Program-made: the position numbers and the translations under genes | From: a virus | Lineage: Duplodnaviria; Heunggongvirae; Uroviricota; Caudoviricetes | Virus record (IMG/VR): IMGVR_UViG_3300042549_006728 | DNA length: 64,000 nucleotides | Strand: one strand, 5' to 3' | In this document: piece by piece, positions 334 to 52,074 of the stretch | How the letters are laid out: every line of letters begins with the position of its first letter | Numbering within the stretch: the stretch's first letter is position 1 | Notes under the pieces: model-generated | Told to the model about the DNA's origin: nothing | Databases searched by the model: none | What the model saw: only the letters and a program-made list of their open reading frames with translations

Positions 334-750
334 TTAAGTTAATTGATTTGCGGGTCCTCTAGCAGGCTCAACCGACCACGGTGAGCTATCTATTGGATTC
401 GCAACTCCCCTATTTACATCTTTAAGAGGCCAAACAGTAGAAGATCCACCAGCAGGTGCACCTTCATCCTCCTCGTCTAATATTTCTTCATCAGTATAAT
501 CATCAATACCGATACCATATTCAGTTACGACAAGTCCGTACCCACCTTCTTTATCATAGTACCCTAAATAGATATCATTATCATCATACACTACTGTTTC
601 GTATGCATTACTATCAAACCTAAGTCTTTTAGGTTCACCATTAACCCATTTAAGTATTTTCTTATACCAACTTTTAGGATCTTTGATTGTTTCACCAAAT
701 TCCCTAATTAGTATTTTTTTATATTGACTTTCTGTAATTATTATTTTCAT
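334..750 (-). CDS. Hypothetical protein, member of the N-terminal 'ITESQYKKL' motif family
   Basis: The ORF track start is TTG/GTG. The likely true start is the ATG at 748-750, giving MKIIITESQYKKIL. It overlaps the upstream TGA stop in an ATGA arrangement. The protein has an acidic, Gly-rich C-terminus. Confidence 0.6.
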   Translation of the reverse strand: MKIIITESQYKKILIREFGETIKDPKSWYKKILKWVNGEPKRLRFDSNAYETVVYDDNDIYLGYYDKEGGYGLVVTEYGIGIDDYTDEEILDEEDEGAPAGGSSTVWPLKDVNRGVANPIDSSPWSVEPARGPANQLT

Positions 751-1100
751 CACCAATTTCTTTCTTTATTGTTAATAACATTTAGCAATTTAACTTTTAT
801 GTTTTTATTTCCAGTCATATCCATTATTTCCCCTTTTATATCATAGAAAAAACTACCTACATCTGCACTATCAAAAATAGAATCAATATAAATTATTAAA
901 CCAATTTCATTATCAAAAGAAGTTGCAACTTCGACATTTTCTACTATATCCAATATTTCACAATCAACATCCTCATCAGCATAATCCCAATCCTCATCTT
1001 CTGTAGCGTGTTCACACTTATCCCTTAAATTATTTAATGAGATGTCCACTATTTTTTGATAAACAGTTTTAAGTTGGTTTTCAGTTATTAAAACTTTCAT
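750..1100 (-). CDS. Hypothetical acidic protein, N-terminal motif family (MKVLITENQLKTV)
   Basis: ORF with a 4-nt ATGA overlap to the next gene. It shares the N-terminal motif with five other proteins. Confidence 0.6.
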   Translation of the reverse strand: MKVLITENQLKTVYQKIVDISLNNLRDKCEHATEDEDWDYADEDVDCEILDIVENVEVATSFDNEIGLIIYIDSIFDSADVGSFFYDIKGEIMDMTGNKNIKVKLLNVINNKERNW

Positions 1101-1678
1101 TCTATTAATTTTATATAGGATTTATATTGATCTGGCGTCCAATCAGTTGAAAAATCAAATAAAGTATCTCTAGCCATATCCCTCACAAGTTCTGCATCAT
1201 CCAAATCCCAATCCAAATCAGGAAACTGATTGGGGTATGTGTCCACTAACTCTATATCATTAAAATTTCGATCTCTAATTTTAGAAATGACATTTTTTAA
1301 TGCCTCTTGACGTGATCCTGCCCTAACAGTAATTTCATAATCTAAAAATGATCTAGCAGTAATTACAGTTGGTAAGTTAGCCTTTATTACATAAGTACCT
1401 TGAAATTCCAACGGAGTATTTAAAAATGTTTCATATTCCCCATCAGGTAAATCTCTAAATGTTTTTTCATAGTTATGTACTATTGTAGTTGCATCAACAT
1501 CACTCAAATCCCAATTAAACATTAAATCTTCAATAGTTTTATCGGCATTAGTATAGATATTTTTTAATGCCCTCATAATTCTTAGGACTTTTGGAGTGAT
1601 TAAATCTCCAACAGACGATGATTCAGTATCCTCTTTAAATAATTTTTTATATTGTTTTTCAGTTAATTTAATTTTCAT
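1097..1678 (-). CDS. Hypothetical protein, N-terminal motif family (MKIKLTEKQYKKLF)
   Basis: ORF in a tandem array of four motif-bearing genes. Confidence 0.6.
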   Translation of the reverse strand: MKIKLTEKQYKKLFKEDTESSSVGDLITPKVLRIMRALKNIYTNADKTIEDLMFNWDLSDVDATTIVHNYEKTFRDLPDGEYETFLNTPLEFQGTYVIKANLPTVITARSFLDYEITVRAGSRQEALKNVISKIRDRNFNDIELVDTYPNQFPDLDWDLDDAELVRDMARDTLFDFSTDWTPDQYKSYIKLIE

Positions 1679-1679
1679 C

Positions 1680-2060
1680 TTAAACGGTTTTTGTTAAAGT
1701 TAAATCTACACTAGATGATTTAATTGTGAATGTATTTAATTGTTTTTTGACATGTGAAATTATATCATTCATTTGATTCGTGTCTATATTAAAAGTTTTA
1801 CCTGTACTATCTTTTACACCATAACCATCTTCAGTCTCCCATATATTTTTGATTAAAACTCCACCATCATAAAATAAAGTGTTTACCTTTAATTTATAAT
1901 AGTAAACCATATCTTTATACATCACTTTAAGTTGTCCAGAGTATTTACCATATTTCGGATCATCCCAATTAATAGGTACTGCACTAACCTTAGTATTGGA
2001 AACTATAATAGTTTCTATAAGTAAATTATTAAATTGACTTTCTGTAATAACTATTCTCAT
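1680..2060 (-). CDS. Hypothetical protein, N-terminal motif family (MRIVITESQFNNLL)
   Basis: ORF in a tandem array of four motif-bearing genes. Confidence 0.6.
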   Translation of the reverse strand: MRIVITESQFNNLLIETIIVSNTKVSAVPINWDDPKYGKYSGQLKVMYKDMVYYYKLKVNTLFYDGGVLIKNIWETEDGYGVKDSTGKTFNIDTNQMNDIISHVKKQLNTFTIKSSSVDLTLTKTV

Positions 2061-2371
2061 TAATTAGTCTTTTCCTCGTCTTTATTTTTATGTCTTAATG
2101 AACCAATTGTTTCGATTACATTTAAAAATTTACCACCAAAAGTATAACCCGCAAATAAAACCATTGCATATTCTAAGGCATCTATGATAATTTGGAACTT
2201 ATTTAAATCCAATGTATTTTCTTTACTAACACCTTTAAACATTAACACACCTAGTGTAATATAATATGCGATGATTGCCCACAACAGATATACTCTACTT
2301 TGAGAGTACATACCTTTTTCTGTAAGCATGTCTTTAAATATTTTCATAATTAATTTAATTTTATTACTCAT
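2060..2371 (-). CDS. Small membrane protein with 2-3 predicted TM helices (holin-like?)
   Basis: Hydrophobic segments LLWAIIAYYITLGVLMF and AMVLFAGYTFGG; charged C-terminus. Confidence 0.45.
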   Translation of the reverse strand: MSNKIKLIMKIFKDMLTEKGMYSQSRVYLLWAIIAYYITLGVLMFKGVSKENTLDLNKFQIIIDALEYAMVLFAGYTFGGKFLNVIETIGSLRHKNKDEEKTN

Positions 2372-2410
2372 AAAATAAAACGTTTAAATTGTTATTATAA
2401 TAAATATCTT

Positions 2411-2441
2411 TAAAAACAAAAAACCCAACTAATGTTGGGTT
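2411..2441 (-). terminator. Factor-independent terminator (minus strand)
   Basis: Hairpin acccaac-taat-gttgggt followed on the minus strand by TTTTTGTTTTT. Confidence 0.6.
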
Positions 2442-2447
2442 TTGATA

Positions 2448-2738
2448 TTATAAAATTTCTTTTATTTTTTTATTTAAGACAGATTCACTGAGAACACCAC
2501 TATTCCTCCAAATCTGTTTACCCTCTTTAACTAAGACTATGGTAGGTATAGTCCTTATCTGAAATTGAGCGGCGACACTCCTATCCTCATCTATGTTAAT
2601 TTTTACTACTTCAATATCACTATTATTTTTTTTAAAACTTTCTATAATAGGATTCATCATCCTACAAGGTCCGCACCATTCTGCCCAAAAATCAATCAAA
2701 ACAGGTTTTTCTGATTGTAATATAGTTTCTAATTCCAT
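2448..2738 (-). CDS. Thioredoxin
   Basis: WAEWCGPC active-site motif; 96 aa. Confidence 0.85.
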   Translation of the reverse strand: MELETILQSEKPVLIDFWAEWCGPCRMMNPIIESFKKNNSDIEVVKINIDEDRSVAAQFQIRTIPTIVLVKEGKQIWRNSGVLSESVLNKKIKEIL

Positions 2739-2770
2739 CTATAAATTTTATTTAATTATTATTATATTAT

Positions 2771-2799
2771 AAATATAAAAGGGGATTAAAAATCCCCCT
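2771..2799 (-). terminator. Factor-independent terminator (minus strand)
   Basis: Hairpin ggggatt-aaaa-aatcccc with a T-rich tract on the minus strand. Confidence 0.55.
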
Positions 2800-2811
2800 C
2801 TGAAATAATAT

Positions 2812-3237
2812 TTATTTTACTTCTAATACCTCTACGTCAAAAATTAATTTTTTACCTGCCATAGGATGGTTGGCATCAATTTTAACACCTTCCTCATTAA
2901 TTTCGGTAACAACTACGTTTATTGTACCCTTATCTCCAGTAGATTGTAAGAAATCACCTACATTAACTCCTTCAGGTGCTCTGTCATTAGGGATAATTGT
3001 TACTAACCCATCAAGATACTCACCATAACCTTCTTCAGGATCAATCTCGATAGTTTTTTTATCTCCCTTATTTAAACCAACTAAACCTTTTTCAAATCCA
3101 TTGATTAATGTACCCTGTCCTAAAACTATATTTAAAGGTTCTCTACCTTCCGCTAAAGAAGTGTCGAATACTGTACCGTCCTCAAATCTTCCTGTGTAGT
3201 GGACTACTACACCCTTACCATTTTCTACTGTCATCAT
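2812..3237 (-). CDS. FKBP-type peptidyl-prolyl cis-trans isomerase (SlyD/FkpB-like)
   Basis: VVVHYTGRFEDGTVFDTS...LNIVLGQGTLINGFEKGLVGLNKGDKKTIEI is the FKBP domain signature. Confidence 0.75.
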   Translation of the reverse strand: MMTVENGKGVVVHYTGRFEDGTVFDTSLAEGREPLNIVLGQGTLINGFEKGLVGLNKGDKKTIEIDPEEGYGEYLDGLVTIIPNDRAPEGVNVGDFLQSTGDKGTINVVVTEINEEGVKIDANHPMAGKKLIFDVEVLEVK

Positions 3238-3285
3238 TTTATTTTTTTTAAATTATAATGATAAAAAAATAAATAGTAAAGTATT

Positions 3286-3708
3286 TTATAATTTTATTTC
3301 GAACCTATCTTTCATTATTTGAATTTTGTCTTCAGGAACACCATGTTCATTTATACCTTCGTGTCTATTTTCTACAATAATTGAGAACACTTTATAATCA
3401 TACTGTTTTGCCAACTCATAATAACGTTCCATTTCCCATTCTTGTGTAAATGTATTAGAAACTGCAATCTCTCTGTAGAAGTTATCGTTAATCAGTGAAT
3501 CCTTCATATATGTTTCAACTGTATCCTGACAGAATTTATGTGCGTCTTTGATTTTACTAAAATCAAAATTATATTCTCCAGTCTCTTTATCGACAAAATA
3601 TTTGTCCGCCTCACAAACTAAAAAATCGTGTTCCACTAATCTTTTGGCGAATGTAGATTTACCTGAACCAGGTACTCCTCTTACAATATATAAAATTTTA
3701 TCATCCAT
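3286..3708 (-). CDS. P-loop kinase (polynucleotide-kinase-like)
   Basis: Walker A GVPGSGKST close to the N-terminus; about 140 aa; sits beside a phosphoesterase and an RNA ligase. Confidence 0.55.
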   Translation of the reverse strand: MDDKILYIVRGVPGSGKSTFAKRLVEHDFLVCEADKYFVDKETGEYNFDFSKIKDAHKFCQDTVETYMKDSLINDNFYREIAVSNTFTQEWEMERYYELAKQYDYKVFSIIVENRHEGINEHGVPEDKIQIMKDRFEIKL

Positions 3709-3726
3709 TTTATTCTGATTTAAAGG

Positions 3727-4017
3727 TTAACAACTTTCTTGATATTCTTTTCCTCCTTGTGTAATAGCATCTAATACTCTAAATAAAGGAACTAATATAG
3801 TACCATTGGTATAGACTTCTTCTTTATCTTTAAAACTATAATCAATTATAAAATCAATAATCTTAAGCTGCTCATCTGTCAATGTTGTAGAATCTAATCT
3901 ACTTTTTACAGATATATCATTTTTTATTTCTTCTTTGTCCATCTTATTTTGATTTAGGTAGTTTTTATTAGGATACGGATATTGCAATAATAGCGATAAA
4001 AGTAAACCATATGACAA
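3727..4017 (-). CDS. Hypothetical protein
   Basis: ORF only. Confidence 0.4.
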   Translation of the reverse strand: MSYGLLLSLLLQYPYPNKNYLNQNKMDKEEIKNDISVKSRLDSTTLTDEQLKIIDFIIDYSFKDKEEVYTNGTILVPLFRVLDAITQGGKEYQESC

Positions 4018-4047
4018 CTACGATTATTGTTACTAAATTTGGGTTTT

Positions 4048-4230
4048 TCATCTTTTATATATCAAATAAGTTACTACCAAAATAACGATTAAAAGTAATA
4101 CTGGTATCCACAATGGTGCAGTTACCCACCACCAACTCCAATCAACGTGATTAGTTAGTTTTAGAACCATAAAAATAAGGAATAGAATCATACCTAATCC
4201 TATCCCACTTGATGAACTGTTTTCACTCAT
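4048..4230 (-). CDS. Small membrane protein (2 TM, Trp-rich)
   Basis: ORF with hydrophobic segments. Confidence 0.35.
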   Translation of the reverse strand: MSENSSSSGIGLGMILFLIFMVLKLTNHVDWSWWWVTAPLWIPVLLLIVILVVTYLIYKR

Positions 4231-4244
4231 AATTTATTATTTAT

Positions 4245-4901
4245 TTATATTCTTTTTTCGTGATGATCTTTTGGTAAACATAATTTTTTAATTGGTTGAT
4301 TTTTAACAATGGTTAAAATTTCATCCAAAGATAAGGGACATAAATTATTACCATCTACACCCACATCCAATGATTTACCGTCACCCAATCTTAAATTAGT
4401 TGGTAGGTGTACGTGACCATGTAAATGTATTGTACCATCATTCATACTATCCCACGATGCAATTGGGTAGTGCATACAGACAAAAGAGTATTTGTCCATC
4501 AACCCCTTACCCAAAATAGATGGTCTACGAACATCTAAAAACAAATAGTCGTGTGTTGAGGAAAAAATATCTTGTATATCTTCTTTGTTTTTGCGAATGT
4601 GGTGATCGTGATTCCCATAAGTTAAATGAACATTCTTACAGATTATTCTATTACGAAATTCCTCTATTTTCTCAAATCCACCAAAACTCCAATCACCCAA
4701 ATGAATCAATACATCATCTTCACCAACAACCTCATTAATATTATTCACTAATGTGTCATTCATATGATTGAGTGAATTAAACTTACGTGTTAGCTTTTCT
4801 GCACCAACCCAACCAGTTGTTGCAGAACAAATATTTGCGTGATTATAATGTGTATCACTCGTAAAAAATAACCGTTGCCCTTTTTCTAATACTAATTTCA
4901 T
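4245..4901 (-). CDS. Calcineurin-like metallophosphoesterase
   Basis: Motifs DTHYNH, GDWSFGG, GNHDHH and GHVH. Confidence 0.8.
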   Translation of the reverse strand: MKLVLEKGQRLFFTSDTHYNHANICSATTGWVGAEKLTRKFNSLNHMNDTLVNNINEVVGEDDVLIHLGDWSFGGFEKIEEFRNRIICKNVHLTYGNHDHHIRKNKEDIQDIFSSTHDYLFLDVRRPSILGKGLMDKYSFVCMHYPIASWDSMNDGTIHLHGHVHLPTNLRLGDGKSLDVGVDGNNLCPLSLDEILTIVKNQPIKKLCLPKDHHEKRI

Positions 4902-4924
4902 TTTACAAATATATTTATAATTTT

Positions 4925-5575
4925 TTAATATTCCAAACTTTTAGGTAAAAATAATAGGGTTGGGTTCTTCTTTTGAATATCTAAGTTTGGGTATTCCTCT
5001 TTAAATTTCATCACGTCAAACTTCTTAGTGATTAAATGGTACCCATTTTTAGTTGGGATAATAGCTTCAATCTTTGGACCAACTTCATGTCCAATTGGTA
5101 TTCCTACCTCGTCAAATTTAACTTTGGTAATTGGATTACATTTATATTCAATAAATGCCATCATTACTGGACTAGGTATATGACTATCATCGATATCTAT
5201 AATCCACCTCTTCTCGTGAGTTTTAATTTGACCAACAACTGAGTCAAATAAACCTTGTTGTTTATCTACACCATCTCTAATACGTTCTGCCAGTATCGCC
5301 AACATATTAAGGGAAACATCCTTATGGTTTTGTTTCTGAACATGAATATATGCCCTCGCCTTAAACATTTCACAAAGTTGTTTAATCTCGTCATACCTCT
5401 TTTCAAGATGATCAATAGATTCTATACAGTAAGTTTTAATTGTTCTTACTGACTGATGATTATCTCTTTCCCCTTCAGGTTGATCCTTTTTACGTTTAAA
5501 AACATATAACATATAAAAATCACCTTTATCAGTGAAATGTAATAGTGGTTTTATTAATTCTAAGTTATCTATCAT
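4925..5575 (-). CDS. Hypothetical protein in the RNA-repair neighbourhood
   Basis: ORF with a 4-nt overlap to the RNA ligase gene. Confidence 0.5.
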   Translation of the reverse strand: MIDNLELIKPLLHFTDKGDFYMLYVFKRKKDQPEGERDNHQSVRTIKTYCIESIDHLEKRYDEIKQLCEMFKARAYIHVQKQNHKDVSLNMLAILAERIRDGVDKQQGLFDSVVGQIKTHEKRWIIDIDDSHIPSPVMMAFIEYKCNPITKVKFDEVGIPIGHEVGPKIEAIIPTKNGYHLITKKFDVMKFKEEYPNLDIQKKNPTLLFLPKSLEY

Positions 5576-6627
5576 AGTTTCCTAAATTTTGGTTTTAAAG
5601 CACTCCATATAATTTTATCATAATCTTTACCATCCCACATCGCAAACATAATTGCCTTTGCAATTGGATGGTGATTCTTAATATGTTCCGCAAATTCTTT
5701 CTTAGTTGGTTCTACTTCTATATCACCGTATTTACCAAATCTAAAATAATCATAAGTTTTACCTAGTTGGTTATAGTATTGGTACCAATGATACCCCAAA
5801 CTACTGGCGTAAGTTTTAATCTTACCATAAAATTCATCAGGAACATCTTTAAGAAAATCTTCTATTTTACCACCACTAGATAAAATTTCCCATACAGTTG
5901 TAGTTGATACATTTGTCATTATTTTATGTAATCTGAGATATTCTTCACCCTTTATCTTCATTCTGTCACCATTAGAAAATTTAACTACATAACCCTCTTC
6001 ATCATCTTTTATTATATTTTTTAAGGTAGTAAAATCAGTTATGCCATCATATTTTTTAACTACTCTGAATCCTATATTTTGAATTAAATTTTTTAATCTT
6101 AAATCTACATCTTCACTATGTAAGACAACTTCATTTTCGGTTTTAGTATTTATCATACCTAATAACACTAAATCCTCAAAATCATACTGTACCACTATTC
6201 GATTATCATCGTATATGATTTCAAATAAATAAGTATAATCTTTATGTAACTTATCGTAATCATATTTTTGTAATAAATCAAAACCCTTTATAGATTGTTC
6301 AGAAGTGAATGAACCTCTAGTTGCCAATACCCATTGATCACCATAATGAAATAGAATTCCTAATGAACCATCCATTTTATCATAAACGTCAAATTCAGAT
6401 GTGGTAGTATGTTTACCTTCTTCCATATTAAAGAATTTTTTAAATGGTCTACCAACAATATCACCATCGGAATTTGTTACTAATCCCCTACACATCAGAG
6501 TTATATTATCCCATAATGATTCGTATTGTACTTTTTCACTATAATTCCAAATAGTTAGATCCAAAGTAGGGTGAACTTGTTTATGTAATAAACCCTTATC
6601 AAAATATTCATTTAAAATTTCATTCAT
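5572..6627 (-). CDS. RNA ligase (Rnl1-like, ATP-dependent)
   Basis: Nucleotidyltransferase motif I YDKMDGSLG (KxDGSL); 351 aa. Confidence 0.75.
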   Translation of the reverse strand: MNEILNEYFDKGLLHKQVHPTLDLTIWNYSEKVQYESLWDNITLMCRGLVTNSDGDIVGRPFKKFFNMEEGKHTTTSEFDVYDKMDGSLGILFHYGDQWVLATRGSFTSEQSIKGFDLLQKYDYDKLHKDYTYLFEIIYDDNRIVVQYDFEDLVLLGMINTKTENEVVLHSEDVDLRLKNLIQNIGFRVVKKYDGITDFTTLKNIIKDDEEGYVVKFSNGDRMKIKGEEYLRLHKIMTNVSTTTVWEILSSGGKIEDFLKDVPDEFYGKIKTYASSLGYHWYQYYNQLGKTYDYFRFGKYGDIEVEPTKKEFAEHIKNHHPIAKAIMFAMWDGKDYDKIIWSALKPKFRKL

Positions 6628-6650
6628 AATGCAAATATACTATTTTTTTT
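6628..6650 (-). promoter_or_regulatory. Promoter-like TAnnTTTG motif abutting the ATG (leaderless?)
   Basis: Minus-strand reading is AAAAAAAAATAGTATATTTGCATT followed directly by ATG. Confidence 0.4.
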
Positions 6651-6654
6651 TATA

Positions 6655-6685
6655 TAAAAAAACCCACATATGTGGGTTTTTCTAA
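6655..6685. terminator. Bidirectional factor-independent terminator
   Basis: Hairpin aacccacat/atgtgggtt with T-runs on both strands. Confidence 0.6.
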
Positions 6686-6701
6686 ATATATGTTATTTTT
6701 T

Positions 6702-8216
6702 TTAAACATTTTCTAAAACCTTAGTCAATCTTTCTCTAATTTGAGTAAGGGTTGTTTGGTTATAAAATACACCATCTTCATAGATTGCTTTTAAATCACC
6801 AGTATTTTCACCCGACCAAGTTTGTTGATCAACTAATTTATACCCACCTTCACCTGTTGTTACTCTAAGTAATCCAGTTGCAGATTTTTTGGTACCATCG
6901 TCAGTGATTGGATCTTTGAATATTTCACGACCCTCAATTGAGAATGATGGACTTCCTGACTCCGCCATATGTTTAACTTCAACATAGGTTGCTTTCATTG
7001 CGAATCCAAATGTATCACGTGTGTTGTATTGGTAAGTGAATGAACCGATACCCAAAACAACATTTGTTGATGCAAATCCTTTTGCTTCTAATCTAGCGCA
7101 AATTTCATTTGCTCTATCGATTGTAATTGAGTCGCCATAGATTGCTCCGATATGTGGATCAAGTACTTTATAACCTTGTTCGTTTATTGTTCCACCGAAT
7201 ACATCCCAAAGCAATTCAATAACACCTTTAAGTTCAGGCATTAATTCGGTTCCTTTTTCATTACCTAATTTAATTCCACAAATAATATCAACTGGATCAC
7301 CAGAGTCAGGACGAATAACCAATTTACCATCACGACTCATAATTTCTTCTTTCAAAGTAACTACGTGTTCAGTACATACTTTCCACAAGTCCCATGTATC
7401 GGATACTACTGAAAGGATTCCAGTTGGGTATGTTTCTAATAATCTACGGAATGTTTCTATTTCATCTTCTTTACCACCAGCACACATTACTGAATGTTCT
7501 GTCGCATTTACTGAACCACCAACAAAACCTTCTTCACCGTAATATTTACGAGCCCCATAAATTGCTGGAAGTGAATCTGTTCCTGAGAATGATGTTAGAT
7601 GTCCAATACCTGATGAAATAGTTGCATCGATTGAGTCTAATCCTCTCATTGAGAAGTCGTGTCCTTGCCAATCAACAAACCAAGCTCTTTCAGTATCGGT
7701 TTTTTCTTGCCAAGATGTTAATACCTTTCTGTAGTTATGTGCAATGGTTGCTGAAGTCATTGGTTTCCAAAGTAAGTTAGAGATAATCGTCTCCAAATAA
7801 TTAGTTACCCAATAAAAATCAGGATGTGTATTGTAGATTGTTAACACAGGAATCTTTTCCCCAATTACAGAACCCTCCTCAATTGACTTTACCTTAATAG
7901 GTAAGTATTGTAAATCCCAAAGAGCTTCAAAATGTGATACATCATAATCTGTGTTAAGATACATAGATAATTCTTTTTTCATTTCTCCACAAACATGTTC
8001 TTTTGGTTGGTGGAAGAAATCTTTCTCGAATGATTCATGAATTATTTTCATAACCATTTGTTGACCAAAAGACACTATCTCTTTACAGTGTTTTGGTGCG
8101 TGTTTCAAACTTCTAGGTGTGAAATTTGAATAGACTAATGTTGTACCCTTTGGATACTGCTGATGATGTCCTGTTTTGTAACCATCTGTTAAAAGTAACG
8201 GATTGATGTTTCTCAT
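6702..8216 (-). CDS. nadV: Nicotinamide phosphoribosyltransferase (NAMPT/NadV)
   Basis: LLTDGYKTGHHQQYP N-terminus; 504 aa; family hallmarks are present along the full length. Confidence 0.9.
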   Translation of the reverse strand: MRNINPLLLTDGYKTGHHQQYPKGTTLVYSNFTPRSLKHAPKHCKEIVSFGQQMVMKIIHESFEKDFFHQPKEHVCGEMKKELSMYLNTDYDVSHFEALWDLQYLPIKVKSIEEGSVIGEKIPVLTIYNTHPDFYWVTNYLETIISNLLWKPMTSATIAHNYRKVLTSWQEKTDTERAWFVDWQGHDFSMRGLDSIDATISSGIGHLTSFSGTDSLPAIYGARKYYGEEGFVGGSVNATEHSVMCAGGKEDEIETFRRLLETYPTGILSVVSDTWDLWKVCTEHVVTLKEEIMSRDGKLVIRPDSGDPVDIICGIKLGNEKGTELMPELKGVIELLWDVFGGTINEQGYKVLDPHIGAIYGDSITIDRANEICARLEAKGFASTNVVLGIGSFTYQYNTRDTFGFAMKATYVEVKHMAESGSPSFSIEGREIFKDPITDDGTKKSATGLLRVTTGEGGYKLVDQQTWSGENTGDLKAIYEDGVFYNQTTLTQIRERLTKVLENV

Positions 8217-11682: not shown

Positions 11683-12417
11683 TTATAATTCAAATGTGGG
11701 TTTTAACCAAAGTCCTCTACTGAATATTAATTTAGTAAAACCTGGTATTCTTTGTTCCACCATACCAAATAAAGTTAATGTCGCCACAGTATCATGTTTC
11801 ATCATTTTTAAAACTTCCTCTCTGATTCTTTCTGCAGATACAACATCTTTAAGTTTATCCATTATTTCAGGTTGTTCCATAGCCCTAAAAATAGACTGGT
11901 GTATGAAGAATCCTTTAGTGATAGAAAATCTTAATGCCCTAAGAAATCTGAGTGGATCATCCATCATTGTTTGTTCGGCAGGTAAAGGAGTTTTTAGTAG
12001 TCTCGCACTTAAATGACCTTTACCGCCAAATAAATCAATTAGATTCCCATTTTCATCTTCCGCCATCGAATTCAATGTGAAATCTCTTCTAATTAGATCA
12101 TCTTCTAATGTCCCTAATTCTAAAATAGGTTGTCTAGTCCCTTCTTTGTAACCGACCTCTTTTCTTGCGAGAACAAAGTCCGCAACTAATCCTTCGTTAA
12201 CATCACCTTTAGGAAATTTAGCTCTGATAGTGAACATCTCTGGAGTAGAAAGGAATATAGTAAACTCTTTATGTTCCATCCATTGTTTCATTATTTCGAA
12301 ACCTTCATCTACTGTTCTATCTATGTTGTCGAGTACAAATGTGAAGTCAATATCTTTAGATTCAACACCTAAGATACTATCTCTTACACAACCACCAACT
12401 TTATATATCTGAGGCAT
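11683..12417 (-). CDS. tRNA nucleotidyltransferase (CCA-adding) / poly(A) polymerase head-domain protein
   Basis: GGCVRD...DIDF class II nucleotidyltransferase motif; 244 aa. Confidence 0.7.
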   Translation of the reverse strand: MPQIYKVGGCVRDSILGVESKDIDFTFVLDNIDRTVDEGFEIMKQWMEHKEFTIFLSTPEMFTIRAKFPKGDVNEGLVADFVLARKEVGYKEGTRQPILELGTLEDDLIRRDFTLNSMAEDENGNLIDLFGGKGHLSARLLKTPLPAEQTMMDDPLRFLRALRFSITKGFFIHQSIFRAMEQPEIMDKLKDVVSAERIREEVLKMMKHDTVATLTLFGMVEQRIPGFTKLIFSRGLWLKPTFEL

Positions 12418-12656: not shown

Positions 12657-12900
12657 TTGTTTTATTTTATCAAAGATATATATAATACTTCAATCTGCCA
12701 AATTTTTTGGTTATTTATATTGGTTATAAATAAGGTGATAGTGATGGAGTACCCGTCTCGCTCCAATCTTAAGTGCTTAATCGTAGTTTTACGAGGCCTC
12801 GGCACTGTCCTTTTCAGGGGGTGATGAATTCCTGATCCACTCTGGATTGTCGACATCCGTTGAGTGGGGAAAACCACTATCAGTATTTTAATTGTTTATG

Positions 12901-12974
12901 TGGTCCTTGTTGGAATCGAACCAACCACCTACTGATTATGAGTCAGTTGCTCTAACCGAATGAGCTAAAGGACC
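12901..12974 (-). tRNA. tRNA-Met (anticodon CAU)
   Basis: Hand-folded cloverleaf: acceptor GGTCCTT/AAGGACC, D GCTC-ATTCGGTTA-GAGC, anticodon loop CTCATAA, T-loop TTCGATT. Confidence 0.8.
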
Positions 12975-13135
12975 AATTAGCGGAGATTTCATCCCATCCA
13001 TTGATCACCCAAGGACTCGTTTCTAATGTATTTGGCACTCCGCCATTGTAAGTTTTCTGTTGCTTACGCCCTCATTCGTGGACTTCCGACATCCCAATGA
13101 GTTTTACCGTCCTATCGGAGTCAGGTAACCGCTTG

Positions 13136-13227
13136 TAGTCAGGACAGGACTCGAACCTGTATGTACAGTTATACAGAACTGCACATCCCTGTATGGATAT
13201 TTGCGTCTACCATTTCGCCACCTGACT
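13136..13227 (-). ncRNA. tRNA-like element with canonical acceptor, D and T arms but an atypical central module
   Basis: AGTCAGG-TG-GCGAAATGGTAGACGC ... ACAGG-TTCGAGT-CCTGT-CCTGACT-A. The middle carries two hairpins, one of them CAGTT-CTGTATA-AACTG. Confidence 0.45.
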
Positions 13228-13418
13228 ATAAAAACACACTCTTCAGCTTTCTACTTCCAGCTCCGAGAAATTATATATAACTTAGCCCATCTCACCGCTG
13301 TATGGGAACTGAAGTTTATGTGTCTTAAGGTTGAGAGCCTCTGTGTTGTAATGTTAATTCTACATTTACATTATTTATTACGTTTAATTCCTTTCTCAAG
13401 GGAACAACACAATAATTA

Positions 13419-13494
13419 TAGATAGGGTGGGATTCGAACCCACAATGAACAACCTTAAAAGGACTCGGCACCGTGCCTCATTACGCTCCTACCT
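13419..13494 (-). tRNA. tRNA-like, 76 nt, anticodon arm unresolved (loop contains UUUUAAG)
   Basis: T-arm GTGGG-TTCGAAT-CCCAC and acceptor AGGTAGG/CCTATCT. I could not fold a canonical anticodon stem. Confidence 0.3.
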
Positions 13495-13500
13495 ACACTG

Positions 13501-13577
13501 AACTACCCATAGGACTCGAACCTACAACCCTTCGGCCTTAGTGACCAATGTGCAAACCAATTTACACCATAAGTAGT
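13501..13577 (-). tRNA. tRNA-like with anticodon loop CACUAAG (possible CUA anticodon, A33 atypical)
   Basis: Acceptor ACTACTT/GGGTAGT, D GTGT..GCAC, anticodon stem TTGGT/GCCGA, T-arm GTAGG-TTCGAGT-CCTAT. Confidence 0.35.
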
Positions 13578-13673
13578 TAATCAAGAAAACATATCAGAAA
13601 TTACTGGTACCAAATCTCACTGCGATATATGATACATCTTCTTGTTAGGATTGGTTAATTACTCCTATCTTTG

Positions 13674-13745
13674 TACTCCCACGGAGAATCGAACTCCGAT
13701 TTTCAGGATGAAAACCTGATGTCCTAACCGTTAGACGATGGGAGC
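13674..13745 (-). tRNA. tRNA-Glu (UUC)
   Basis: Acceptor GCTCCCA/TGGGAGT, Glu-like D-arm TC-GTCT-AACGGTTAGGAC, anticodon stem-loop TCAGG-TTTTCAT-CCTGA. Confidence 0.7.
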
Positions 13746-13964
13746 AAATTGTGACAACCTTTGGGTTCGATTGTCACTTTTACGTGAAAGGAGTGATCAG
13801 ACCCTCTAACATCACGAGTGTAAGTTTTTCACATTAAACTATCTCTACAAAACGTCAGTTTTTATCGCCCTTAAACTGAATAAACGGTTTGACACTTTGT
13901 ATCCCCTTTTTTAAGTGCGTGATACATCTTCTCTCAAACTGAACTCTACTGAGAACACTCCCTG

Positions 13965-14036
13965 CGGTCTATGAGAGAATCGAACTCTCGGCACATCCGT
14001 GACAGGGATGTATGTTAGCCACTACACTAATAAACC
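13965..14036 (-). tRNA. tRNA-Asp (GUC)
   Basis: Acceptor GGTTTAT/ATAGACC, anticodon stem-loop CATCC-CTGTCAC-GGATG, T-arm GAGAG-TTCGATT-CTCTC. Confidence 0.75.
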
Positions 14037-14261
14037 AAGTTTCCCCACTCTGAGATTACAAGTGAGTAGTCGTATCGGTTTTTTTTCTATTTGAAAAACC
14101 TGATGGGCATCCCCGTTGAAAAAGTCAGCTCTATACGTCAGCAGTGCAGAACCTCGCTACTGTTATTCTGAATCGATTGCCTTAGGGAGGCGTTTTTTAA
14201 CCCTATCCATTGTTAAATGAGTCTTGGATAAAAGACTACTGAGTATCTCTTACTCATTATG

Positions 14262-14418
14262 TAGTTGGGGTAGGACTCGAACCTACATAAACACTTTGAA
14301 ATTTACCTACGCACCGTGAGGTAGTGTTCTTCATCATTTGCATTGCCTAACCATTGATCGATTTTACGTTTCGGCTGCCGTGCGTGTCAATAAGCGTCTA
14401 CCATTTCGCCACCCAACC
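14262..14418 (-). ncRNA. tRNA-like element with an insert of about 105 nt between the D-arm and T-arm
   Basis: GGTTGGG-TG-GCGAAATGGTAGACGC ... GTAGG-TTCGAGT-CCTAC-CCCAACT. The acceptor pairs cleanly. Confidence 0.45.
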
Positions 14419-14466
14419 ATACTACATCTCCTTTCGATTCTATAAGGAATCTACTCCGTTCTGTTG

Positions 14467-14540
14467 TACACCCGCCAGGATTCGAACCTGGGACCTATTC
14501 ATTAGAAGTGAATTGCTCTATCCAGCTGAGCTACGGGTGC
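14467..14540 (-). tRNA. tRNA-Arg (UCU)
   Basis: GCACCCG-TA-GCTC-AGCTGGATA-GAGC-A-ATTCA-CTTCTAA-TGAAT-AGGTC-CCAGG-TTCGAAT-CCTGG-CGGGTGT. Confidence 0.85.
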
Positions 14541-14759
14541 AAATAAAAGATGATAAATGGATTTATCAGGAATCTGGCTATAACCATAAACACTTCCTAT
14601 AATTTCTATACTATTGTCATTAGCGTATATGAGCTTCACACACCATTAGAGAGTCGGGTTGTTACATCAATACAATTAAGATCGAATACCTTTCCTTAGT
14701 GTGTACCTTTGCGTCACGTCTCTCCACGCTTACCATTCTACGCTTTGTATCATCTTTTG

Positions 14760-14843
14760 TACTCGAATCGGGACTTGAACCCGAACGGGCAATTGCCCAC
14801 AAGATTTTAAGTCTGGCGTGTCTACCGATTCCACCATCCGAGC
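14760..14843 (-). tRNA. tRNA-Leu (UAA), type II
   Basis: GCTCGGA-TG-GTGGAATCGGTAGACAC-G-CCAGA-CTTAAAA-TCTGG, then variable arm GGGCAATTGCCC, then T-arm. Confidence 0.85.
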
Positions 14844-25885: not shown

Positions 25886-26083
25886 TTAAGTTTTTTCAAG
25901 TAATGAATTATCCAATTCTATATCTAAACCAAATAGTGATTTTTCAATTACTTCACGTATTGTTAATGTTGGTTCATCTTTCATAATATTTAAACAAACT
26001 AACATTAACTCATTTGTTCTATCAGTTTGATTGGTGAATTTAATCACATAATCAATAAATTTTAAATCATCAAAATGTTTCAT
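25886..26083 (-). CDS. Hypothetical protein
   Basis: ORF only. Confidence 0.4.
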   Translation of the reverse strand: MKHFDDLKFIDYVIKFTNQTDRTNELMLVCLNIMKDEPTLTIREVIEKSLFGLDIELDNSLLEKT

Positions 26084-26085
26084 AA

Positions 26086-26454
26086 TTAATTAAGTATTAT
26101 TTCACCACACATTCTTTCATTATTTATAAATTCCTCACCATCAAACAATTTATCACTGAATTTAACACCAGCACCAATAATTTCACCTTCTTTTCTTTGA
26201 ATAAAATGTTTTAATTCAAAAATATCATTACGATAAATAAAGATTCTATCAATCTCATTTTCAAAAATAACATCATATTTATCATCAAAAATACTTGTAT
26301 CAACAATGTCTAATAAACTAGTTGGTATTTTTATAATATTTTGTCCATTCATTAAACACGCTTTACTGATTTGTGCCGAAATTTGATTTGATTTAGTTAG
26401 TAATAACTGTGATGTTATCTCACCAGTTAATTTAATTTTCCAAGATGTTTCCAT
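26086..26454 (-). CDS. Hypothetical protein
   Basis: ORF preceded by the promoter cassette. Confidence 0.45.
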   Translation of the reverse strand: METSWKIKLTGEITSQLLLTKSNQISAQISKACLMNGQNIIKIPTSLLDIVDTSIFDDKYDVIFENEIDRIFIYRNDIFELKHFIQRKEGEIIGAGVKFSDKLFDGEEFINNERMCGEIILN

Positions 26455-26464
26455 AATTTTTCTT

Positions 26465-26538
26465 TTTTTTTTACAAATATACTAATTATTTTTCATTTAA
26501 TCAAGTTTTATCTTAAAATCACCGTACTGGTTATAACC
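26465..26538 (-). promoter_or_regulatory. Promoter cassette R2, copy 1 (TAGTATATTTGTAAAAAAAA plus upstream element)
   Basis: About 75 bp near-identical to 27075-27148. The TAnnTTTG box sits 20 nt upstream of the ATG. Confidence 0.5.
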
Positions 26539-26554
26539 AATACTACTTTTGTTC

Positions 26555-26935
26555 TTAGATGTTAGTATCTGAGTTAAAACTTTTTAAAATTTCTTGACAT
26601 TTCCTCCAAGAAAAACAATCTTCACCCTCATAAAACCAATCATCAGTTTTAAAATTTGGATGTTTCTTATCATTATCATACTCTTCACCAAAATCTCTGG
26701 TTAATGAATATACCTCATTGTTAATAATTAAAGTAACTGTCATAGTACCAATCCACGCACCTTTCATATATTCATCTTCAATGATCCTATTGGTTGATGT
26801 TACGTTAACTGAATCTGGTTCGTGTTTGAATATGACTTTAAAATCATCTTTTATCATAGTTTCCAGTGATTGTGGGGAACCTTCCATTAACCCATATAAT
26901 CTACTTACAATAAATTCTTTGTATTTGTTTTCCAT
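26555..26935 (-). CDS. Hypothetical protein
   Basis: ORF only. Confidence 0.45.
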   Translation of the reverse strand: MENKYKEFIVSRLYGLMEGSPQSLETMIKDDFKVIFKHEPDSVNVTSTNRIIEDEYMKGAWIGTMTVTLIINNEVYSLTRDFGEEYDNDKKHPNFKTDDWFYEGEDCFSWRKCQEILKSFNSDTNI

Positions 26936-27074
26936 TGTTTTAGTATTTCTTTAATAACATCTTCCCATTGATTGGTTTCGGTTATATGTTTAATTTTGTT
27001 TTCTGAAAAAGAAGATACTTGTCTATGACCTTCTTTATCAGTAATAATAATCTCCATTTTAGATTCCATAATCT

Positions 27075-27148
27075 ATTTTTTTTTACAAATATACTAATTA
27101 TTTCCCAATTAGTCAAGTTTTATCTTAAAATCACCGTACTGGTTATAA
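27075..27148 (-). promoter_or_regulatory. Promoter cassette R2, copy 2
   Basis: Repeat of 26465-26538. It precedes a short ORF start at about 27070 that is absent from the 60-aa ORF track. Confidence 0.45.
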
Positions 27149-27247
27149 CAACGTGTATATTCAAGTTTGCATCAGCATTTGTGCATAATTCAAATTTAAT
27201 CAAAGCAAACCTGAAATATACACGCATCCGTTATACACAATATTTTT

Positions 27248-27768: not shown

Positions 27769-27774
27769 AATTTA

Positions 27775-48527: not shown

Positions 48528-48929
48528 TTAAAATATTCTAACAAGTGAAGAAAATAAGGTAGGAAATAATGGTTTTGGTAAATCATTTATATCAAACCAA
48601 CCCCAATCTTGATTTTCTTCGTTTAAATCGCAATCATATTCTTGATCACAAAACCCAATAAAAAAATGATAAGGGTACCCCATTTCCCATTGAGTTTCGA
48701 ATAATATATATTTAATATTATCAGATTTTATATTAGTCTCTTCGTATAACTCTCTTTTAACCCCATCTAATTCTGTTTCACCATTTTCTATTTTACCACC
48801 AAATAAACTCCAAGTATTAGGAAAACTTCCATTTTTTCTTCTTTGCCCTAATAAAAATCTATTTGTTGTGGTACATATTAATAAAACTCCACCATATATT
48901 TTTCTTTTCATTATAAACTTTCTTGCCAA
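48528..48929 (-). CDS. Nudix hydrolase
   Basis: Nudix box GGKIENGETELDGVKRELYEETNI. Confidence 0.75.
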   Translation of the reverse strand: MARKFIMKRKIYGGVLLICTTTNRFLLGQRRKNGSFPNTWSLFGGKIENGETELDGVKRELYEETNIKSDNIKYILFETQWEMGYPYHFFIGFCDQEYDCDLNEENQDWGWFDINDLPKPLFPTLFSSLVRIF

Positions 48930-51166
48930 TAATAATATTTATCCATTGCGGTTGCAGGTCTTATTGTACCCCACCCATAAACTTCATTATAGGGTGATCC
49001 ACCACCACACCTAGGTTTCAAATTTTTAGGTTTAGTAACTCTTTCCTCAAAGTGTAAATGAGCACCATGAGATTTACCAGTATTACCCATTAACCCTATC
49101 GGATCACCTACTTTTATTTCCTGCCCATTTTTTACATATATCTTAGCTAAATGACCATATGCGGAATATATTCCCCCACCATGATTTATAGATACGAAAT
49201 TACCGTAACCACCACAAACAGATGCGTAATCCACAACACCTGATTTATTACAAACTATAACATTTTTACCATAACCATATGGTCCAACAACATCATAACC
49301 GTGATGTGGTTTTCCCCACCTATTTGCAGTTGGTAATGAAGTCTTTTTACCTGATGAGGCACTCGCAACTTTTTTACCTAATACAGGTTTTGGTAGAGTT
49401 TTTTTATCAGGTTCAGTTTTTTTATCAGGTTCAGTTTTTTTACTATTACCACTTTTTATTTCTCCCGTTTCCATATCGATGAACGAACTTAATTTCTGTA
49501 GTATCGGTTTATCTGGCAATCCAACATGTACATGATGGTATGTACCACTATCCCATCTTGATATTTCCCCAATCGGTGTCCCTAAATCAACTTTTTGTCC
49601 TTTAGATATTTTTAAATTCTGTAAATGCGTATAAAATATATCAGGATACCCATTTTCACCTGTAACAGTTACTTGTGCACCATAAACTTTACCATCATGA
49701 TCGTTTTGGTTTCCACCTATTTTACTAACAGTACCCTTTGTTATCGAATAAACAACACTTCCAGGTTTTCCAGGTATATCCGTAGCGTTATCCGATTGCC
49801 AATTACCTAATTTTCTACTACCATGATTTGCAGGACCATTTTTATCAATTTTTACACTTTTACCTATAATATATTTACCACTTCCAACAAATTCATCGTC
49901 TTCTGTTTGTGCGTCATAACCTGGTTTACCCTCTCTAACCCATTCTTTACCTTTATGTTTAAACGCAATTTCAACATAATCGTTTAATGATCCTGTTTTA
50001 TCTAAACCTGTATTTTTATCACAATCAGATAACATTCTATTAACATAATTTAATCTATAACTATCCTGATTAACCCAATTTCTAAATGCGTTACCATCTG
50101 CAGTACTTTTTATGTGTTGATTATACAATTTTCGTTCATCCACAGTTAATGTACAATTATCATCTTCTATTGAACCCCCTCCATATTTTTCAATATGTTT
50201 AGGGTTAAGTGTACCATTATATTTAAGGATTTCTATTACCAGACCACCCGTACCCCAAGTTTTTAATTCACCAACTTCAGAAGCAATTGACATTGCAGTT
50301 ATATCATTATTTTTTAATTTTGATACCACATTATTATATCTCCCATTAGTCAAAGTTTTAACAGTAGCATTTAATCCTGAATTATATGTCTTATAATTTC
50401 TTACACCTGGACTAGATCCTGAAGGACATGTTCTACAACCTGTAGGTGTATAACCAACACCATTTTTTAAACAATTATAATAACAACCTTCATTTGCCTG
50501 ATCTCTATATGTTGTAGCAAATGGATTATACGTTGATTCTGATGATTCTCCACTTCTCCATGCAAAGAAGAACATCATTTTTTCACATGTGACTTTTGTT
50601 CCAATAGATTTTAATATATCTTGATAAAATTTAATATCCATAGATGGTGGTAAAATAACTTTTCGTCTATTACCTTTATTATTTTTACCAAAATTACACG
50701 CCTCTAATGTTTTAAACACTTCTTCTTCTGAATCATCTATTACCGCCACATCACTGTTATCCTCAACTTCTGCTACGTCACTATTTTCATTATCTACTAC
50801 TGCGATATCACCACTAACAAAATCACTGTCAATACCACTATCGAATCCAAAAACATTAGGTAATACTTTATCCCTAGGGTTAATTTTAAAATCTACATAA
50901 TCCTCTATGATTTTTTCTATCTGTTTCCTTTCCTCAGATGAATATTTAGTGGAATCTAAATAAACTACCCCATGTTCAATTTTATCGACATAAACATCTT
51001 TTGTGATTTTATTCATTGCGAAATAACCTGTTAAATGGGTTAGAGTGTCTAAAATATCATGACTAACATCTTTTTCATCTTCAGGATTATTAAATATAAA
51101 AAATTGTTCATTTAATAATTTAACTAATTTACTATATTGACTTTCTGTGACTAAAATTCTTTTCAT
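48911..51166 (-). CDS. Large virion-associated peptidoglycan hydrolase with two M23/LytM peptidase domains and the N-terminal motif (MKRILVTESQYSKL)
   Basis: C-terminal HGYDVV...GKSHGAHLHFEE, plus an upstream second M23-like block YTHLQNL...GTYHHVHVGL. It also contains a repeated KKTEPDKKT linker. 751 aa. Confidence 0.8.
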   Translation of the reverse strand: MKRILVTESQYSKLVKLLNEQFFIFNNPEDEKDVSHDILDTLTHLTGYFAMNKITKDVYVDKIEHGVVYLDSTKYSSEERKQIEKIIEDYVDFKINPRDKVLPNVFGFDSGIDSDFVSGDIAVVDNENSDVAEVEDNSDVAVIDDSEEEVFKTLEACNFGKNNKGNRRKVILPPSMDIKFYQDILKSIGTKVTCEKMMFFFAWRSGESSESTYNPFATTYRDQANEGCYYNCLKNGVGYTPTGCRTCPSGSSPGVRNYKTYNSGLNATVKTLTNGRYNNVVSKLKNNDITAMSIASEVGELKTWGTGGLVIEILKYNGTLNPKHIEKYGGGSIEDDNCTLTVDERKLYNQHIKSTADGNAFRNWVNQDSYRLNYVNRMLSDCDKNTGLDKTGSLNDYVEIAFKHKGKEWVREGKPGYDAQTEDDEFVGSGKYIIGKSVKIDKNGPANHGSRKLGNWQSDNATDIPGKPGSVVYSITKGTVSKIGGNQNDHDGKVYGAQVTVTGENGYPDIFYTHLQNLKISKGQKVDLGTPIGEISRWDSGTYHHVHVGLPDKPILQKLSSFIDMETGEIKSGNSKKTEPDKKTEPDKKTLPKPVLGKKVASASSGKKTSLPTANRWGKPHHGYDVVGPYGYGKNVIVCNKSGVVDYASVCGGYGNFVSINHGGGIYSAYGHLAKIYVKNGQEIKVGDPIGLMGNTGKSHGAHLHFEERVTKPKNLKPRCGGGSPYNEVYGWGTIRPATAMDKYYYWQESL

Positions 51167-52074
51167 ATTACTGTTATTAATCTTAATAATTTTCTTTTAA
51201 ATGATTCACCTAAAATATTAAATTTTCTTTCTAAATCAATTAAGAATCTATCGGTTGATTTTATCTTTGGTAAATTACCTTCTGTATAATAGAAACACAT
51301 TATTATTTTGTAAAGTTCACTTTTTCTATCATCTGTGAGATTAGTTATCTCTTTTAAATATTCATCTGATTTAAAATTTATCATAGTTTCTGCAAATATA
51401 TACATTGGTAACCCCTTTAAGATGTCAATAAAATCATTGTAGTCTTTAGGTTCCGCTTTTGATATCATACTTCCAGCTTGTTGTATAAATGCATTTATTT
51501 CAAATGATTGCGAAATATATAACATATATGCGATCCTATCAACTGCGTCCCCATTAATATCTCCATTTTTGTAGACTTCTTCACACCCTTTAATTTCTTT
51601 TGGTGTTTCTAAATTCCTATTTACCCATTCATATACATGCATAAACTCATGTGATAAAAAAGATGAAAAATAATAATGTAGTGTACCATAATCAATCTCA
51701 TCTCTATTTTTAGGTAATTTCATTATAACGTCAAATTCAACATCTAAAATATTATACGTATCATCATCATTTTCTATTATTTGAGTATAGAAAGGATTAT
51801 ACCCCATACTAACATCTGCAAAATCGTCATCTATATCATCAATAATCACTGTCATTATTATACTATCAATTGGTACATCTTTATAAAAATCTTTCCCCTT
51901 AAGTTTTAATGATAATTTTTTTAATGTGTAGACATCCTCTTCCACATCTTGTTTCATAATAGTGGGTAGTAATTCGTCAGTTACATAATCCGCCCAATTT
52001 TCAACAGTTTTAGAATAACCTCTATTTTCTTTGAGTATTTTTTTATATTGACTTCTATTTACAATTACCTTCAT
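51163..52074 (-). CDS. Putative zinc metalloprotease (HExxH) with the N-terminal motif (MKVIVNRSQYKKIL)
   Basis: HEFMH motif, followed by a downstream E. Confidence 0.5.
   Translation of the reverse strand: MKVIVNRSQYKKILKENRGYSKTVENWADYVTDELLPTIMKQDVEEDVYTLKKLSLKLKGKDFYKDVPIDSIIMTVIIDDIDDDFADVSMGYNPFYTQIIENDDDTYNILDVEFDVIMKLPKNRDEIDYGTLHYYFSSFLSHEFMHVYEWVNRNLETPKEIKGCEEVYKNGDINGDAVDRIAYMLYISQSFEINAFIQQAGSMISKAEPKDYNDFIDILKGLPMYIFAETMINFKSDEYLKEITNLTDDRKSELYKIIMCFYYTEGNLPKIKSTDRFLIDLERKFNILGESFKRKLLRLITVI

Follow-up and report, generated by a model that had tools for sequence, protein, structure and literature searches.

Six genes of IMG/VR record IMGVR_UViG_3300042549_006728, a 64,000-nucleotide stretch of a tailed virus (Caudoviricetes) hereafter called the window, encode otherwise unrelated proteins that begin with one common peptide. 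This peptide, the tag, counts about 16 residues and typically reads M-K-I-I-I-T-E-x-Q-Y-K-x-L-L-x-E. Its position is strictly N-terminal, and selection acts on the peptide. It bears a cleavage consensus, is carried by unrelated proteins as a portable peptide and not as a DNA element, and is found in phages whose head genes are T4-type. Because the relatives of the window genome possess T4-type head genes and the tag matches the cleavage rule of the prohead protease gp21 twice, the favoured reading, held with reasonable rather than high confidence, is a new sequence form of the T4-style capsid-targeting propeptide, employed at a much larger scale. The first-pass annotation had described a modular N-terminal signal akin to the capsid targeting sequences of T4 internal proteins. 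The modular signal is fully upheld and the targeting or propeptide function is substantially strengthened, by evidence of an indirect kind, whereas likeness to the T4 targeting sequence itself was not found.

The tagged genes form one array of four and one tandem pair, and are listed below with the scores obtained from a position matrix built solely from tag-bearing families of other contigs.

334..750, minus strand: first tagged gene of the tandem array, 138 residues, acidic (pI 4.5); tag MKIIITESQYKKILIRE, encoded at about 700-750, with [LIVM]-x-E sites at E7 and E17; matrix score 44.5 bits.
750..1100, minus strand: second tagged gene, 116 residues, acidic (pI 4.2); tag MKVLITENQLKTVYQKIVD, encoded at about 1044-1100, with E7 kept and Asp at the usual place of the second Glu; matrix score 19.0 bits.
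1097..1678, minus strand: third tagged gene, 193 residues, acidic (pI 4.7); tag MKIKLTEKQYKKLFKE, encoded at 1631-1678; matrix score 34.4 bits.
1680..2060, minus strand: fourth tagged gene, 126 residues, basic (pI 8.7); tag MRIVITESQFNNLLIE, encoded at 2013-2060, with sites at E7 and E16; matrix score 40.4 bits.
48911..51166, minus strand: tagged M23 protein, 751 residues; tag MKRILVTESQYSKLVKLLNE, encoded at 51107-51166, with a one-residue insertion (MKRILVTESQY) and sites at E8 and E20; matrix score 26.1 bits.
51163..52074, minus strand: tagged HExxH protein, conserved in the clade, 303 residues, HExxH at residue 142; tag MKVIVNRSQYKKILKE, encoded at 52027-52074, with E7 replaced by R (MKVIVNRSQY, N-R for T-E).

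Direct reading of the sequence reproduced the positions, minus-strand orientation and N-termini that the first-pass annotation had given for these six genes. The common block it had delimited at 13 residues is real, but extends over about 16 and usually ends in [LI]-x-E. As claimed, the proteins are unrelated past this block, since no similarity was detected among the six downstream of the tag; nor do the cargos share a C-terminal motif or a charge bias. Two Peptidase_M23 stretches in the 751-residue protein (Pfam E=2.4e-33) and the HExxH motif were likewise found again, whereas the count of two acidic proteins has to be raised to three of the four tandem products (pI 4.2-4.7). The four tandem proteins and the HExxH protein gave no Pfam or PHROG match. 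The family of the 334..750 product was found in 11 related loci, and that of the HExxH protein comprises 107 clusters with invariant M1, K2, I4, V5, N6, Q9, Y10 and E16, as well as H142, E143, H146 and E149. The AlphaFold2 (AF2) model of the HExxH protein is confident, and its matches, none of them with a solved structure, are only uncharacterised proteins of uncultured phages.

Within the window, the motif search on other proteins recommended by the first-pass annotation found the tag on these six genes only. A six-frame scan for [TN][ER][SNK]Q[YFL] returned their N-termini and one 18-codon non-gene. The matrix gave the tagged proteins 19-44 bits and the other 109 N-termini of the window at most -0.7 bits, the best internal 16-mer in window proteins reaching 0.6 bits once a shifted register of the 48911-51166 tag is set aside. 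In the shuffled window, 0.00 matches to the strict DNA pattern were expected by chance; these shuffles and the matrix scores rule out a chance or AT-bias origin. A window gene at 54160-54912 begins with MKFKKLITESVIDNL, a near-variant not scored by the matrix.

Beyond the window, a degenerate DNA pattern detected the tag at no fewer than 118 IMG/VR loci (designated by L numbers), on contigs with a GC content of 24-35% and lengths of up to 409 kb, and every match lay at the start of an open reading frame (ORF). Once deprived of their first 20 residues, the tagged proteins of these loci fell into 31 families without detectable mutual similarity. The consensus over families, M-K-I-[IK]-[ILV]-T-E-x-Q-[YFL]-x-x-[LI]-[LI]-x-E, includes positions that the search pattern left free, and L or I occupies position 13 in all 31 families. 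Pfam domains recognised among them are phage lysozyme, PG_binding_1, GH19, sigma-70 regions 2 and 4, GP88 and M23, together with a weak, below-threshold DHH match in one family. A looser protein-level scan collected 154 distinct tagged N-termini in 1.1 Mb, and TE[SN]Q[YF], sought in six frames over 1.1 Mb, occurred 106 distinct times, of which 100 stood at a called start, five were N-terminal variants and one was spurious. A profile of the tag run against 1.84 billion protein cluster representatives (50% identity) retrieved 108 clusters at E<=0.001. Of these, 97 were new, and in about 90 of the 97 the tag stands at residue 1. A 40-residue tag query in a set of 5.8 billion proteins returned short fragments only.

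Cellular genomes are nearly devoid of the tag, as the DNA pattern gave eight matches in 596 Gb of bacterial and archaeal sequence, at least six of them on low-GC phage-like contigs from metagenome-assembled genomes (MAGs) and one single-cell genome. Two tagged arrays are found on contigs of the Prochlorococcus sp. AG-409-L21 single-cell genome (L215 and L216; QCKH01000009 and QCKH01000014; 64 kb and 32 kb, about 30% GC), and four of the other six matches stand in Bacteroidota MAGs. The tagged contigs in a sorted Prochlorococcus cell are a possible host clue. With either the tag or the HExxH protein as query, tblastn matched no cultured phage, and Flavobacterium phage immuto has a single weak copy of the internal type. 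This internal unit, of the form ..RMQKLAGIITESQFNEE.. or ..QKQAGIITESQYKKLLKE.., stands in immuto gp083 (NC_055915 111675-112139) and is repeated in a 531-residue metagenomic protein (P0135). A full-text literature search for core strings of the tag retrieved no paper.

Tagged genes tend to be grouped, 42% of them having a tagged neighbour, and the content of the groups varies. The four-gene array of the window is a five-gene array in a phage with identical flanking proteins, the extra tagged gene lying upstream of the relative of 1680..2060. A near-identical relative of the window carries at least three further clear tagged genes in the next 10 kb. At the place corresponding to window 25886-28400, a tagged DHH-like gene is present in a 281-kb relative (L115), whose neighbouring proteins are 86-92% identical, and absent from the window, so that tagged cargo genes come and go between close relatives.

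Other recurrent N-terminal leaders exist in the same phages, namely MKLIITEEEKNRILGMH, MKKIIRLTESDLTRIVRRVIKEQ and MKLSKLITENT (L007 693-2703, L099 7338-9348, L130 14758-18597), which may be sister tags. Two huge phages, L119 (LR745206, 635 kb; 2534-4986) and L120 (LR756501, 735 kb; 1525-5678), encode homologues of the weakly DHH-like tagged cargo and begin their proteins with yet another recurrent motif (MLKNYWTYIKES, MLRYFDYIKES, MISKYNQFINEE). This last motif is nearer to the T4 capsid targeting sequence MKTYQEFIAE and likewise ends in I-x-E.

What is conserved in the tag is the peptide. Thr is encoded by each of its four codons, the GAA/GAG and CAA/CAG ratios equal genome-wide usage, and Ser is encoded alike by AGY and TCN codons; position 8 varies freely, and the DNA upstream of tagged genes is not conserved. 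In the family of the 193-residue protein, the tag is nearly identical between paralogues that share 26% overall identity. The AF2 models suggest that the tag is detached from the fold of its protein: in the HExxH protein (pLDDT 86.7, pTM 0.85), residues 1-17 form the sole segment with pLDDT below 50, and in the 193-residue protein residues 1-5 and 9-20 fall below this value, with a first confident helix starting at about residue 29. A helix is also predicted at tag residues 7-16.

The tag also matches the specificity of gp21, a protease that recognises L/I-X-E and cleaves behind the Glu (PMC9026906). Cleavage at ITE-6 removes six residues from T4 Alt, which also releases a C-terminal piece at LTE-619 (PMC5694885), and T4 gp23 is cut at L-T-E65, as read from its sequence. 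The near-invariant I-T-E at tag residues 5-7 fits L/I-x-E. A second [LIVM]-x-E, with its Glu at positions 13-19 and mostly at 15 or 16, is present in 111 of 137 tagged proteins (81%) versus 7-22% in control windows, in a region that the search pattern had left unconstrained. In the HExxH family, whose first Glu is replaced (N-R), Glu16 is kept in 31 aligned members. The capsid protein of the clade has F-L-I-N-E followed by A-T-G, aligning with F-L-T-E followed by A-E-I in T4 gp23. A conserved protein of about 420 residues, encoded upstream of the terminase, begins with MGNLTEKELDRIVNKIINE followed by APIDY, which makes up a tag variant with I-N-E-A at its end. In tagged proteins, the mature part is relatively depleted in [LI]-x-E (observed/expected 1.00 vs 1.16, about 2.7 standard deviations), which lends weak support to the propeptide reading. 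The tag is a short peptide of 10-20 residues at the extreme N-terminus of unrelated proteins, ending at the gp21 consensus L/I-x-E.

Further evidence comes from the head genes of tag-bearing phages. Searches by phmmer with T4 head proteins found homologues of gp17, gp20, gp21 and gp23 in 13 tag loci, and the visible head genes of tag-carrying contigs are always T4-type, i.e., portal gp20, prohead protease gp21 (Peptidase_S77) and capsid gp23. The gp21-family protease was identified in the relatives L010, L029, L034, L040, L043, L050, L117 and L213; aligned with T4 gp21, these homologues keep ELNHP and G-[IV]-S-S-R-G, the catalytic His and Ser motifs. They stand beside gp20 and gp23 homologues. 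Pfam Peptidase_S77 and Gp23 adjoin tagged genes on a 210-kb contig that adds to the 13 loci, and a 296-kb contig combines a head module (L117, L133) with tagged genes at three separate places. Tagged genes lie within the head module between portal and protease in L043 and directly before the protease in L213, and four of them precede the large terminase gene (TerL) in L006 and L215; in the latter, the Prochlorococcus single-cell contig, they stand directly upstream of a T4-like terminase and portal. The capsid protein of the clade recurs in at least 600 IMG/VR stretches at 75-94% identity, and its nearest cultured relatives, about 43% identical, belong to Microcystis phage Mel-JY01 and Flavobacterium phage immuto. 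The gp20-like portal of L043 (1772-4735) counts 987 residues vs 648 in L006, the extra segment showing intein-like and HNH-like sequence features.

Besides single N-terminal copies, some proteins carry tandem double tags such as MKIRLTESQYDKLLKVVNQNKKLIITESQYKRLI, and the full-length carriers of these are large (327-700 residues). A few proteins have internal tags between domains. Protein P0166 (785 residues) thus successively displays an ADP-ribosyltransferase (ART) domain of the ART-PolyVal type (E=1e-19), KRIFVTESQYKQLINE, a middle part with BspA-type leucine-rich repeats, RRIFITESQLKMLKQHINE and a C-terminal part, and the distance between its gene and one for Peptidase_S77 is about 6 kb. 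Avidity would be raised by tandem tags, and internal tags would free the domains of a polyprotein. Tagged cargo in relatives of the window includes lysozymes, a GH19 domain, this ADP-ribosyltransferase polyprotein, a sigma-70-type factor and the weakly DHH-like protein. Hydrolases of the cell wall, a sigma factor and an ART domain fit the expectation for injected proteins, and polyvalent proteins have been proposed to be injected with phage DNA (PMC5512222).

In T4, all internal head proteins join the scaffolding core via an N-terminal capsid targeting sequence of 10-20 residues, and the internal proteins of T-even phages form a diverse set with only this sequence in common (PMC3012670, PMC5694885). 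We infer docking, cleavage, packaging and ejection for the tagged proteins along similar lines. While the prohead is being assembled, the tag would dock its protein onto the scaffolding core. After closure of the shell, a gp21-type serine protease would cut after Glu7 and/or Glu15-17, both in L/I-x-E contexts. The mature protein would then be free among the packaged DNA and be ejected with it into the next host. The cargo would amount to a pre-made set of early-acting enzymes, comprising for the window the double M23 cell-wall peptidase, the HExxH protein and four small proteins.

In its presumed function the tag resembles the T4 targeting sequence and the Alt propeptide; it is no sequence relative of the former. 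Like the tag, the targeting sequences of T4 IPI, IPII and IPIII are short N-terminal peptides on otherwise unrelated, fast-evolving proteins and end in L/I-x-E (PMC3012670, PMC9026906). As in T4, homologues of gp20, gp21 and gp23 are found in tag-bearing relatives, and the tagged genes lie outside the head module in variable tandem loci, the four or five genes of the window array in near-identical phages recalling the variable internal-protein loci of T-even phages (PMC3012670). Set side by side, however, MKTYQEFIAE and MKIIITESQYKKLLxE show no sequence similarity. The T4 sequence has 10 residues and one site and heads three proteins, whereas the tag has 16 residues and two consensus sites and heads more than 100 families, with six or more copies per 64 kb. 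Unlike the T4 sequence, the tag also occurs in tandem or internally, and it is known here from sequence alone. Since there is no similarity to the T4 targeting sequence, homology with it is ruled out, which leaves analogous function unaffected.

Other head-internal proteins offer partial parallels. T4 Alt, an ADP-ribosyltransferase packed in the head and injected, is cut at ITE-6 (PMC5694885); the tag has I-T-E at 5-7 and its clade a tag-containing ART-PolyVal protein. The Alt propeptide nevertheless counts six residues and is not found on other T4 proteins, whereas the tag is conserved nine residues further, to its second site. In phiKZ, 201phi2-1 and SPN3US, as proposed here, many head-internal proteins are cut after Glu by a gp21-related protease, from propeptides that may contain multiple sites (PMC5694885, PMC9026906). 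These giant-phage propeptides differ by their S/A/G-x-E sites, a length often above 100 residues, the lack of a common tag and a protease of family S80, that of tag phages being S77. A propeptide of the phiKZ type was therefore rejected as a candidate, since P3 is here I, L or V and the protease matches T4 gp21/Peptidase_S77. The polyvalent proteins described by Iyer et al. in 2017 are multi-domain and predicted to be injected (PMC5512222), and P0166 has their ART-PolyVal domain near head genes. Their processing has been ascribed to their own peptidase domains (PMC5512222), whereas in P0166 a linear tag separates the domains. Unlike the polyvalent proteins of phages (PMC5512222), the six window proteins are not polyvalent.

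Several observations weigh against a capsid-targeting propeptide. A prohead-protease gene, whose identification the first-pass annotation had put forward as a check, was found in the tag-bearing relatives and not in the window or its flanks: phmmer and exact-protein look-ups over the window and 10 kb on each side revealed no head gene and no protease, so that the window genome is linked to a gp21 protease by relatedness and not directly. Tag loci touch a head module in 13 of the at least 118 cases, near chance expectation. Only six of 1073 ORFs around 80 capsid genes are tagged, which rules out a clustering of tagged genes at head modules. No late-promoter or upstream motif is enriched before tagged genes (TATAAATA in 8.6% vs 5.2%), and in L007, L014 and L099 one tagged family directly follows baseplate-like genes (gp25-like and gp6-like, by N-terminal sequence). 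The GenBank phage collection holds no phage with a close tag copy or a homologue of the HExxH cargo. The number of tagged genes, six in the window plus at least three in the next 10 kb of a relative, or ten and more over some 75 kb, far exceeds the three internal proteins and Alt of T4, and only the initial M-K and the terminal Glu are common to MKTYQEFIAE and the tag. One window tag (750-1100) has Asp at its second site. Finally, the L/I-x-E motif is short, and helices rich in Glu are frequent.

Among the alternatives, a handle without any virion role, recognised by a chaperone such as the DnaJ encoded in the window, by a protease of timed degradation or by an unknown envelope export route, is considered unlikely. 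Portability and the predicted detachment from the fold would suit such a handle, and so would the scattering of tagged genes among metabolic genes without a late-promoter signal. The basic-hydrophobic-basic start (K-I-I-I) may also be seen as resembling generic chaperone-binding segments. This explanation accounts neither for the gp21 consensus ending in 81% of the proteins nor for the tags between domains of the polyvalent ART protein by the head module; the tag moreover lacks a long hydrophobic core or a signal-peptidase site, and its eight matches in 596 Gb make it almost absent from cellular genomes. Signal peptides have a positive start, an uninterrupted hydrophobic core of about ten or more residues and a peptidase site, or else a twin-arginine motif or a lipobox Cys. 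A Sec, Tat or lipoprotein signal peptide was rejected on direct reading of the tag, which has only three or four hydrophobic residues before T-E-x-Q and Lys; the window does encode true lipoprotein-like starts, e.g., at 32026-32196, and these look different.

It is improbable that the part of the virion to which the tag leads its proteins is the baseplate or the lumen of the tail and not the head. The tag would then act as do the N-terminal signals by which payloads are packed into contractile injection systems, and cell-wall hydrolases would be in place for penetration. The tagged family behind baseplate-like genes in L007, L014 and L099 and the several peptidoglycan enzymes among the cargos (M23, lysozyme, GH19 and PG-binding domains) speak for such a destination. 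Yet T4 likewise has its alt-family genes in linkage with baseplate genes, and Alt nonetheless goes into the head (PMC5512222); the cargos include enzymes acting in the cytoplasm, namely the sigma factor and the ART polyprotein. The two conserved L/I-x-E sites point to a head protease, and more than 100 cargo families with double tags on 700-residue proteins suit the volume of a head better than the lumen of a tube.

There is a similarly small chance that the tag is an inherited N-terminal strand and helix that helps folding, solubility or oligomerisation and has spread by gene duplication and exon-like shuffling without a sorting role. Tandem arrays and paralogue families are indeed common, as reflected by the 42% of tagged genes with a tagged neighbour, and a helix is predicted at residues 7-16. 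A structural element would hardly be far more conserved than the proteins that it heads, occur on at least 31 families with unrelated Pfam domains, stay unpacked against the domain in the models, or be found duplicated in tandem. Conservation at the level of nucleic acid, as a translation-initiation enhancer, an RNA-binding repressor site or a hotspot for cassette-swap recombination, could draw on the AT-rich start with its AAA second codon and on the differing gene content of arrays in near-identical phages, but is effectively excluded because the choice among synonymous codons at T6, E7 and Q9 is that of the genome at large, Ser is encoded by both AGY and TCN, and internal and tandem copies lie far from start codons, with upstream DNA unconserved.

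The window itself is part of a large phage genome without a close GenBank relative, and a DNA search for cultured relatives gave no near match. Its GC content is 29.6%, and all but a few of its roughly 115 genes lie on the minus strand. Many of these genes are common to the tag loci at 60-100% amino-acid identity, one such locus lying on a 281-kb contig. It contains 28 tRNA genes and a tmRNA gene. The tRNA genes form two clusters (12900-14843 and 28406-31674), one 93-nt tRNA-like gene was called with a four-base anticodon (taca), and the tmRNA gene encodes its own tag peptide (tRNA-like and tmRNA coordinates 13135-13227 and 37051-37449). Other genes code for nicotinamide phosphoribosyltransferase (NAMPT), a T4 Rnl1-type RNA ligase, a Ro-like RNA-binding protein, DNA methyltransferases and a sigma factor. 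The RNA ligase, NAMPT, an enzyme of the CCA-adding/poly(A) polymerase family and the Ro/TROVE-like RNA-binding protein make up a set for RNA repair and NAD salvage at 5572-8216, 11683-12417 and 44866-46281. In the phage flank, about 4 kb past the window start, a near-identical contig encodes ferritin and ribosomal protein S21 (L130 14000-14683).

If the tag does mark packaged proteins, a 16-residue pattern would be enough to tell from sequence which early-acting proteins abundant uncultured phages inject. These proteins, which otherwise stay invisible in metagenomes, rank among the foremost candidates for anti-defence and host takeover. T4-style cargo loading would have been reinvented with another peptide and extended from about four to more than 100 cargo families, the tandem arrays of orphan genes would be explained, and a second, orthogonal tag would be available for packaging foreign proteins into heads. 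A broader proposal, advanced tentatively and on balance doubtful, is that of a general cargo-loading code by which a widespread clade of T4-like jumbo phages, aquatic and uncultured, would load dozens of enzymes per genome into the head and inject them, with dosage tuned by tandem tags. An ADP-ribosyltransferase polyprotein cut at its internal tags, cell-wall hydrolases and a sigma factor would then be delivered to the host. Protein delivery would in that case go beyond the scale of any known T4-like phage, and the injected arsenal could be read from sequence alone.

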